DNA from: Escherichia coli
Lineage (GTDB): Bacteria > Pseudomonadota > Gammaproteobacteria > Enterobacterales > Enterobacteriaceae
Reading direction: 5' to 3' (one strand)
Length of the DNA stretch: 4,516 nt
Assembly: GCF_003334255.1 (NCBI RefSeq)
Contig: NZ_QOWU01000108.1
A model generated the notes under the pieces. That model did not search any database and was not told the origin of the DNA. It was given only the letters and a program-made list of their open reading frames with translations. Below, in pieces: positions 3,388-4,516 of the stretch. The translations under genes were made by a program, and so were the position numbers. Every line of letters starts with the position of its first letter. Positions within the stretch are counted from its first letter, which is position 1.

Positions 3388-3639
3388 AAGCATGTTTCTG
3401 GCGGTCATAGCTCTATCGGCAAAGCGATATTTGCCATGGCGCGTCACAGTTCTGTTGAATGGGTTAATGGGCAGGAGGGTAACACCAGATGGGGAGGAAT
3501 AATAAGAAAAAATCTCTGCCAGGAAGCTATCGTTGAAAAGCAATGTGACAGATATTCCATCTGATAAAAAGAATTATGGTTTAGCAGGAGCGCATTGTTG
3601 AGCACAATGATGTTGAAAAAGTGTGCTAATCTGCCCTCC

Positions 3640-3705
3640 GTTCGGCTGTTTCTTCATCGTGTCGCATAAAATGTGACCAATAAAACAAATTATGCAATTT
3701 TTTAG
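3640..3705 (+). promoter_or_regulatory. AT-rich upstream activating region (UP element / likely Fis-binding region) of the tRNA-tufB promoter
   Basis: Strongly A+T-rich tract (cataaaatgtgaccaataaaacaaattatgcaatttttt) directly upstream of the -35. Stable-RNA promoters, including the thrU(tufB) operon promoter, are known to be Fis-activated through upstream sites. Individual sites were not resolved by eye. Confidence 0.45.
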
Positions 3706-3742
3706 TTGCATGAACTCGCATGTCTCCATAGAATGCGCGCTA
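3706..3742 (+). promoter_or_regulatory. Sigma70 promoter of the thrU-tyrU-glyT-thrT-tufB operon
   Basis: -35 TTGCAT (3706-3711), 17-bp spacer, -10 TAGAAT (3729-3734), then GC-rich discriminator gcgcgc (3735-3740), which is typical of stringently controlled stable-RNA promoters. The predicted start is about 7-8 nt before the first tRNA. Confidence 0.8.
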
Positions 3743-3748
3743 CTTGAT

Positions 3749-3824
<76 letters not shown>

Positions 3825-3832
3825 TCAAGTCC

Positions 3833-3917
<85 letters not shown>

Positions 3918-4033
3918 ATTTCGGCCACGCGATGGCGTAGCCCGAGACGATAAGTTCGCTTACCGGCTCGAATAAAGAGAGCTTCTCTCGATATTCAGTG
4001 CAGAATGAAAATCAGGTAGCCGAGTTCCAGGAT

Positions 4034-4108
<75 letters not shown>

Positions 4109-4114
4109 AGATGT

Positions 4115-4190
4115 GCTGATATAGCTCAGTTGGTAGAGCGCACCCTTGGTAAGGGTGAGGTCGGCAGTTCGAATCTGCCTATCAGCACCA
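4115..4190 (+). tRNA. thrT: tRNA-Thr (anticodon GGU)
   Basis: 76 nt. Acceptor stem gctgata/tatcagc, anticodon stem caccc/gggtg with loop tTGGTaa (anticodon GGT), T-loop ttcgaat, encoded CCA. Begins 6 nt after glyT. Confidence 0.93.
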
Positions 4191-4268
4191 CTTCTTTTCT
4201 CCTCCCTGTTTTTTCCTTCTGTTTATTGCATTCAACAAGTCGGGCATGTTGCCTGGTTGATGTGGTGA

Positions 4269-4516
<248 letters not shown>

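Follow-up and report, generated by a model that had tools for sequence, protein, structure and literature searches.

The internal transcribed spacer (ITS) of metZ-metW-metV, known as ITS-metZWV, pulls down the small RNAs RybB and MicF, and the 3′ external transcribed spacer of leuZ, 3′ETS-leuZ, sponges sRNAs. According to a review of 2021, no stable ITS had been reported. The tyrU-glyT spacer of Escherichia coli resembles the sRNA-sponging tRNA spacers in their common feature, being a transcribed spacer of a tRNA operon that lies between co-transcribed tRNAs. The operon to which it belongs, tRNA-tufB, encodes four tRNAs and about a third of the cellular EF-Tu and has been under study since 1980. 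No description of this spacer was found in the literature, although the older primary papers on the operon may have mentioned a potential structure.

The window, that is, the whole stretch of E. coli DNA analysed here, comprises 4,516 nt with the gene order rrfB–murB–birA–coaA–thrU-tyrU-glyT-thrT–tufB. It starts in the 3′ end of rrnB, with the 5S rRNA at 1-115 followed by the two rrnB terminators. In the terminator region (116-330), hairpins are seen near 125-165 and 296-322, with ~120 nt between them. The coaA gene lies on the minus strand and is followed by the tRNA-tufB operon, the structure of which is confirmed by the literature. The intergenic region between coaA and thrU (3388-3748) is listed as a binding site of NtrC and RpoN holoenzyme in a genomic SELEX study (PMC8743547), which is unexpected for the promoter region of a stable RNA. 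The genes of the operon, of which the tRNAs were located by both ARAGORN and Rfam, are:

thrU (UGU), positions 3749-3824
tyrU, positions 3833-3917
glyT (UCC), positions 4034-4108
thrT (GGU), positions 4115-4190
tufB, start at position 4315

These coordinates bear out the spacer lengths of the preliminary description, namely 8 nt for thrU-tyrU, 116 nt (3918-4033) for tyrU-glyT and 6 nt for glyT-thrT. The same description had found no ORF with a start and SD in the long spacer, and rightly so, as no start-codon ORF is contained in it and every listed ORF extends into the tRNA genes. A mini-ORF from the ATG at 4032-4034 was dismissed; its NTG is made up of U(−1) and G+1 of the tRNA, and the would-be SD lacks proper spacing. 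No Rfam 15 family matched 3918-4033, either at the gathering score or at E ≤ 10. In 5,421 RefSeq genomes of E. coli, the spacer is single-copy and carries no annotation.

For comparison, one genome per species was scanned with a pattern of the glyT-thrT junction, which is neutral to the length of the tyrU-glyT spacer, and 120 loci were obtained; CoaA homologs gave ten further loci of Enterobacteriaceae and Erwiniaceae. The comparison set for Enterobacterales holds about 45 loci. The gene order Thr-Tyr-Gly-Thr is universal among the sampled Gammaproteobacteria. The Tyr-Gly spacer measures 82-245 nt in Enterobacterales outside Orbaceae; within Orbaceae it measures 51-56 nt in most and 149 nt in one genus, Zophobihabitans. 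Spacers of 28-56 nt are found in Pasteurellaceae, Vibrionaceae, Pseudoalteromonas and most Alteromonas. A long tyrU-glyT spacer is typical of the order Enterobacterales. Tyr-Gly spacers of 106-127 nt in a few Alteromonadales have arisen independently. Another observation is that a 44-kb plasmid of Serratia liquefaciens carries the whole thrU-tyrU-glyT-thrT-tuf operon (locus L153, 1144-1683) with a Tyr-Gly spacer of 198 nt.

An alignment of spacers from 12 genera (A1) was submitted to RNAalifold, and the consensus structure consists of three adjacent hairpins, H1, H2 and H3, flanked by single-stranded parts. In E. coli coordinates, the elements of the spacer are:

3918-3922, plus strand: U-rich head AUUUC, directly after the tyrU CCA; candidate RNase E site for release of the tyrU 3′ end
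3923-3942, plus strand: H1, GGCCACGC-GAUG-GCGUAGCC, with a C.A mismatch in E. coli and Salmonella
3944-3969, plus strand: H2, GAG.CGAUAAG-UUCG-CUUACCG.CUC, with an internal A.C mismatch
3970-3996, plus strand: H3, outer helix GAAUA/UAUUC and inner helix GAGAG/CUCUC, the 5′ arm A-rich and the 3′ arm U-rich
3997-4012, plus strand: A-rich single-stranded linker GUGCAGAAUGAAAAUC, unpaired in the consensus structure, identity 0.63
4013-4028, plus strand: invariant block CAGGUAGCCGAGUUCC, with the core GGUAGCCGAGUU at 4015-4026, unpaired in the consensus structure
4029-4033, plus strand: proximal glyT leader AGGAU, the last base of which is U(−1), next to the RNase P site at G4034

The hairpins are kept by compensatory change. 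H1 has 7 pairs, 4 of them changed on both sides, with 92.6% of the cells paired at a sequence identity of 0.64; the corresponding values are 10 pairs, 8 changed, 88.3% and 0.59 for H2, and 8 pairs, 7 changed, 84.2% and 0.54 for H3. Over all three hairpins in Enterobacteriaceae and Erwiniaceae, standard pairing is found in 88.2% of the cells as against 33-49% in controls with the partners slid by 1-3 columns. Double-sided changes affect 19 of the 25 pairs, as against 4-8 after sliding, and the covariation score of 0.447 compares with about 0.11 after sliding; none of 500 shuffles reached the observed values. Since pairing is kept at an identity of only 0.54-0.64, comparable to the 0.55 of promoter-side intergenic DNA, selection acts on the pairing and not on the sequence. 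When A1 was turned into a covariance model, spacers of Enterobacteriaceae and Erwiniaceae scored 71-113 bits, with 71-112 bits for loci outside the training set (Pantoea, E. albertii, M. plantisponsor); Yersinia scored 35 bits, and spacers of other Enterobacterales matched weakly, in the tail only. Elsewhere in ~300 kb, the model found no comparable match and one borderline match (E = 0.52, 11.9 bits).

The preliminary description had called the spacer internally structured. That does not follow from the E. coli sequence alone, where the sense strand (MFE −31.8 kcal/mol, z = −0.64) is no better than its shuffles, and single-sequence folding was discarded as evidence; it is the covariation that bears the statement out. 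The antisense strand of the E. coli spacer folds at −40.5 kcal/mol, far better than its own shuffles (z = −3.44), because of two C.A mismatches, in H1 and H2, which are common to E. coli and Salmonella only. Across the stems of Enterobacteriaceae, 28 sense-only G.U pairs stand against 13 A.C, and in the Morganellaceae hairpin, which is different, single and long, sense-strand G.U pairs are abundant; both indicate that it is the transcribed strand that folds. The number and the sequence of the hairpins vary by family, with one short hairpin in Orbaceae, one long in Morganellaceae, three in Enterobacteriaceae and extra ones in Pantoea. The block stays constant throughout, which fits a spacer that has to be folded and to carry the block. 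When the entire precursor is folded in silico, H1-H3 are predicted as local hairpins. We also considered a helix that would close the spacer by pairing the U-rich head with the A-rich tail, and rejected it, as it is possible in only ~7 of the 12 genera, low in information and absent from the RNAalifold prediction.

Of the two features singled out earlier, neither is what matters most. The small hairpin GAGAG-CTT-CTCTC at 3977-3989 is present and turns out to be the inner helix of the larger, covarying H3. The imperfect direct repeat (3937-3946 and 4016-4024) is present as well, but does not rise above chance, an equivalent 10/9 repeat occurring in 12.6% of shuffled spacers. It was rejected as a functional duplication, as its first copy falls on the H1/H2 junction and varies between genera, while the second lies inside the invariant block and is conserved.

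The core GGTAGCCGAGTT (4015–4026), in the single-stranded 3′ tail, is essentially invariant from Escherichia to Orbaceae. Over 14 genera, the block has a mean identity of 0.94, as compared with 0.97-0.99 for the tRNAs themselves. The string GTAG.CGAGTT is invariant in 15 genera, drawn from Enterobacteriaceae, Erwiniaceae, Yersiniaceae, Morganellaceae, Orbaceae and an unclassified MAG. In a set of 133 spacers, GGTAG[CT][CT]GAGTT occurs in 45, one copy per locus, comprising all Enterobacterales loci but Zophobihabitans, whose copy lacks one G (AGTAGCCGAGTT), and it occurs in none of the spacers from outside Enterobacterales. The distance from the block to the 5′ end of glyT varies between loci from 2 to 8 nt. 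The neighbouring single-stranded parts are less uniform. The head reads YUUUC in most Enterobacteriaceae (mean identity 0.77), and the linker in most genera is ACAGAAAGAAC, of which CAGAA is invariant. The proximal glyT leader has an identity of 0.94 in Enterobacteriaceae, Erwiniaceae and Yersinia and is different in Morganellaceae and Orbaceae.

In the last ~30 nt before glyT, other orders have conserved leader motifs of their own. Five Alteromonadales loci share a conserved leader motif, ATGAGGTGGCC, which is at the same position as the block, is similar to it and apparently sits in a hairpin loop (CUCU...AGAG). In three Vibrionaceae loci, glyT is preceded by AAUAGCUC-NNN-GAGUUAC, a mini-hairpin GCUC-NNN-GAGU the loop of which differs between genera. 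The block was also sought in tRNA-Gly genes of phages, and the 14 pattern matches in viral contigs were put down to chance, none of them adjoining a tRNA.

Of 5,421 complete E. coli genomes, 5,416 have the spacer at an identity of 99% or more, and 5 fall below 99%. Two control segments of 116 nt from the adjacent coaA-thrU intergenic region fall below 99% in 392 and 459 genomes, respectively. Polymorphism of the spacer within E. coli is about 80 times below that of the neighbouring intergenic DNA. The tufB leader (thrT-tufB, 4191-4314) is below 99% in one of the 5421 genomes and 80% conserved across genera, and the glyT-thrT spacer AGATGT (4109-4114) is 95% conserved over 14 genera, so that other non-coding parts of the operon are tightly constrained too. 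The preliminary description had named poor conservation as the result that would speak against its proposal. What was found is strong conservation, of structure, of a sequence of 12-16 nt and within E. coli, and the spacer is therefore clearly under selection. Taken together, the tyrU-glyT spacer is an RNA element under selection, in which the hairpins covary and one box is invariant across the order; its transcription context, conserved structure, invariant sequence and purifying selection are shown here. The finding is more substantial than the reasons first given for it suggested.

The origin of the tail was approached by aligning the last 40 spacer bases of each genome to its own tRNAs, with z-scores against background. 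In five genera of Morganellaceae the leader matches its own thrU at nt ~24-56 with z = 4.6-5.3 (p about 0.001-0.003), and in Morganella, Yersinia and Orbaceae at the same nt ~24-56 with z = 2.5-3.2, although these lineages share one ancestor, so that the similarity counts in effect as one observation. For E. coli, Klebsiella and Pantoea, z does not exceed 1.2, and spacers from outside Enterobacterales give no signal. Against tyrU and glyT the scores do not rise above background, and against the paralog thrT they are weak. The matching part of thrU comprises the anticodon arm, the variable loop, the 5′ strand of the T-stem and the start of the T-loop. The block alone gives z of about 3.2 against thrU 44-56 (AGGUCCCGAGUUC), and the part upstream of it is not significant alone. 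An alignment of the block to the 3′ end of thrU (T-stem 3′ strand, acceptor strand, CCA) was rejected, as the alignment to nt 24-56 scores better. The T-arm of E. coli thrU (3797-3813) has the T-stem ACCAG/CCGGU with an A52.C62 mismatch. In Yersinia, Morganellaceae, Ferrimonas and Oceanisphaera the T-stem is CCGAG/CUUGG, and it is this type that the spacer block resembles.

Models specific for tRNA did not report a remnant: ARAGORN found only the four known tRNAs, and the Rfam tRNA model (cmscan, E ≤ 10) had no match inside the E. coli spacer and none in the spacers of Photorhabdus, Xenorhabdus, Proteus, Moellerella and Gilliamella. A BLAST search of the tail together with glyT against phages and plasmids returned clusters with 3-4 nt between a tRNA-Thr(UGU) and the tRNA-Gly(UCC) downstream of it. 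In Escherichia phage JLK-2012 (locus L152, 1362-1595), tRNA-Asn, Thr(UGU) and Gly(UCC) come right after the antiterminator Q, and in a plasmid of Cedecea neteri (locus L154, 1442-1596), 4 nt separate Thr(UGU) from the Gly(UCC) that follows it. The apparent leader match in phage JLK-2012 was dismissed as the 3′ end of a tRNA-Thr. It is plausible, with the chances for and against about balanced, that the tail descends from a truncated tRNA-Thr(UGU) that once lay just upstream of glyT, in which case the block would correspond to nt ~43-56, that is, the variable loop and the 5′ strand of the T-stem.

With respect to function, we tentatively favor, at somewhat less than an even chance, that the spacer acts in cis as a maturation and insulation module of the thrU-tyrU-glyT-thrT-tufB precursor, with a specific ligand for the block. 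The three self-contained hairpins would fold the spacer onto itself, so that it neither invades the folds of the flanking tRNAs nor offers unstructured RNA to Rho or exonucleases. The U-rich head, one nucleotide past the tyrU CCA, would serve as an RNase E-type site. The 3′ tail would form the 5′ leader of pre-tRNA-Gly and offer two signals, a further RNase E-type site (GAG|UU) and, for RNase P, U(−1), which the bacterial enzyme prefers. The invariant core would be read by a specific partner, either protein or RNA. We infer such a partner since the core is too strictly conserved for degenerate nuclease signals alone; the cleavage sites and the insulation are likewise mechanistic steps that we infer. 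The signature of RNase E asks for a U two nt downstream of the cut in a single-stranded segment (PMC5222698). Two candidate matches to this signature (RN|WUU), both unpaired in the consensus, are CA A|UUU at 3916-3921 (cut after A3918) and GAG|UUC at 4022-4027. The cis role is consistent with the position between co-transcribed tRNAs, the covarying hairpins that are predicted to form locally in the precursor, the low variation within E. coli, the fit of the head and of GAG|UU to the RNase E signature, and the identity of the block (0.94 against 0.54-0.64 in the hairpins and 0.55 in intergenic DNA). Nevertheless, the degenerate preferences of RNase E and of RNase P for leaders cannot explain an invariant sequence of 12 nt, and the variable distance of 2-8 nt between block and glyT argues against RNase P reading the block directly at a fixed spacing. 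As a hypothesis, insulation is soft and would fit almost any set of hairpins, and other Gammaproteobacteria manage with spacers of 28-56 nt without such hairpins.

The preliminary description had speculated that the spacer is a stable, possibly regulatory by-product of processing. Of the checks that it named, conservation came out strong, and the one in RIL-seq data was negative: the feature tables of Bar et al. 2021 hold no intergenic entry tyrU.glyT. A spacer RNA acting in trans, either excised (about 80-115 nt) or as precursor, would use the block as a seed for an sRNA or mRNA or for binding by Hfq or ProQ, and serve as sponge or regulator. An invariant single-stranded stretch of 12-16 nt beside a stable structured body is indeed the conservation pattern of an sRNA seed; the linker in most genera is a purine-rich tract of A-R-N type, AGAAAGAAC; and ITS-metZWV and 3′ETS-leuZ are precedents. 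We nevertheless regard this as unlikely, though the strongest competitor of the cis role. The scan of the plus strand of the spacer found no terminator-like site, and with no intrinsic terminator or U-tail on the sense strand there is no Hfq-binding 3′ module of the 3′ETS-leuZ type. The 3′ single-stranded tail left by RNase P would be open to exonucleases, the 2021 review knew of no stable ITS, and no complementary partner was identified. Comparison of the block with sRNA seeds and RNase P RNA gave only short matches at chance level, which are not counted as evidence. The only chimeras listed for glyT are with ChiX, which also ligates to other tRNAs. In stationary-phase RIL-seq, ChiX is the sole partner both of glyT (783 chimeric fragments) and of aspU (10,306) (PMC8175672, supplementary table 1), which could be a curious association on Hfq or a ligation artefact. 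Slightly less probable again is that a dead tRNA-Thr fragment was co-opted as an invariant single-stranded recognition site, at which an RNA or protein reads or regulates the precursor, or, alternatively, that the ITS, stabilized by its hairpins, acts in trans once released. The same remnant might instead be a fossil only, the hairpins being filler and conservation arising, for example, by hitch-hiking on the tRNA genes. The match of the leader to its own thrU at nt ~24-56 (z up to 5.3), and not to tyrU or glyT, would agree with this, as would the mobile clusters with Thr(UGU) 3-4 nt upstream of Gly(UCC). Yet neutrality would not keep one part of a relic invariant from Escherichia to Gilliamella while the part next to it decays, the compensatory changes show selection for pairing, polymorphism in E. 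coli is ~80 times below neighbouring intergenic DNA, and the Rfam tRNA model finds no partial tRNA. A mere fossil is quite improbable.

Three further readings have less to offer than the cis role. The block might pair transiently with the tRNA downstream, GGUAGCC annealing co-transcriptionally to glyT nt 17-25 (GGCUAUUAC) until it is displaced by the acceptor stem, and so guide or delay the folding of tRNA-Gly, much as rRNA leaders chaperone the folding of 16S rRNA. MFE folds of the growing transcript keep this helix at 3′ ends from 4058 to 4100 and lose it at 4108; leaders of other orders (AAUAGCU in Vibrio, UGAGGUGGCC in Alteromonas) are also complementary to glyT 17-29; and z is about −2.4 to −3.4 for glyT windows 10-30. 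However, z is equal or stronger against windows of thrU and thrT (−3.2 in E. coli, −4.5 in Gilliamella), so that pairing with glyT is not separable from chance. A match of 7 bp with wobble is expected by chance, the invariance of glyT leaves no room for two-sided covariation, and Pasteurellaceae give no signal, which makes this pairing improbable. A signal at the level of transcription is rated a little below even the fossil. Here, H3 with the U/A-rich tract after it would pause transcription or attenuate it leakily, or else the block would signal a pause or antitermination; the effect in each case would be to set the ratio of thrU/tyrU to glyT/thrT/tufB or to shield the untranslated transcript from Rho. 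A U-run follows H3 in Yokenella (CCUCUUUUUUG), Shimwellia (GUCAUUUUUC) and Cronobacter (UUUUUUG), and GGTAGC is common to the block and the RfaH ops element. The consensus sequences are GGCGGTAGCGTG for ops and GCTCTTTAACAA for boxA. By inspection against them, the E. coli spacer has only the GGTAGC of ops, without its C3:G8 pair and 3′ GTG, and no boxA-like run; the spacer has no promoter-like site, the AU-rich stems of H3 are weak, and no terminator is called on the sense strand in E. coli, the sole site of the terminator scan lying on the minus strand at 3989-3977, in the H3 region. Less probable than any of these is an antisense element, in which the block would be part of a promoter or RNA of the minus strand, for instance a sigma-E-like −35 (GGAACTC) with TCTG 14-17 nt downstream. 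Motifs of the form AACTC...TCTG were seen by eye in several families, and in E. coli the antisense strand, unlike the sense strand, folds better than its shuffles (z = −3.44). This z is due to the two C.A mismatches common to Salmonella only, sense-only G.U outnumber A.C across genera, the spacing of the motifs varies from 14 to 17 nt, and the invariant GGCTACC would sit in the spacer region of the promoter, which should not be conserved. By scan or inspection, promoters of sigma-70, -28 and -54, ops, boxA and antisense sigma-E were all rejected as not fitting.

With a covarying structure and a sequence about as conserved as the tRNAs, the spacer is a defined and mutable target. It could shed light on the processing and insulation of long tRNA spacers, or prove to be the second well-founded functional internal spacer of tRNAs after metZWV. 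Descent from tRNA-Thr, if true, would illustrate the reuse of remnants of tRNA genes; and if the fragment were indeed co-opted, this would mean a regulatory spacer RNA across all Enterobacterales, in an operon that ranks among the most highly expressed of the cell.

Among known systems, tRNA pseudogenes and partial copies, such as the tRNA-Tyr 3′ segments downstream of tyrT and att-site remnants, resemble the spacer tail in that the latter is colinear with thrU nt ~24-56 in Morganellaceae, Yersinia and Orbaceae and in that mobile clusters place Thr(UGU) directly upstream of Gly(UCC). The tail differs from them in being missed by ARAGORN and the Rfam tRNA model, in ending at the T-loop and in being partly invariant across an order. 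Leader and spacer elements of rRNA operons (boxA/boxB/boxC, leader-16S) likewise combine hairpins with a short invariant single-stranded box in a stable-RNA operon, but the tyrU-glyT spacer has no match to boxA or boxC, and its leader-tRNA pairing could not be told from chance. A further likeness is to the metZ-metW-metV ITS and to the 3′ETS of glyW-cysT-leuZ. Like the tyrU-glyT spacer, these are transcribed as spacers within polycistronic tRNA precursors, are conserved in enterobacteria and contain a short single-stranded stretch that is conserved; they are released by RNase E and RNase P, which for the tyrU-glyT spacer is putative. The metZWV ITS and 3′ETS-leuZ have demonstrated partners (RybB, MicF, RyhB); 3′ETS-leuZ carries an Hfq-binding terminator, unlike the sense strand of this spacer; and the met ITSs measure 33 nt, as compared with 116 nt and three covarying hairpins between tyrU and glyT.
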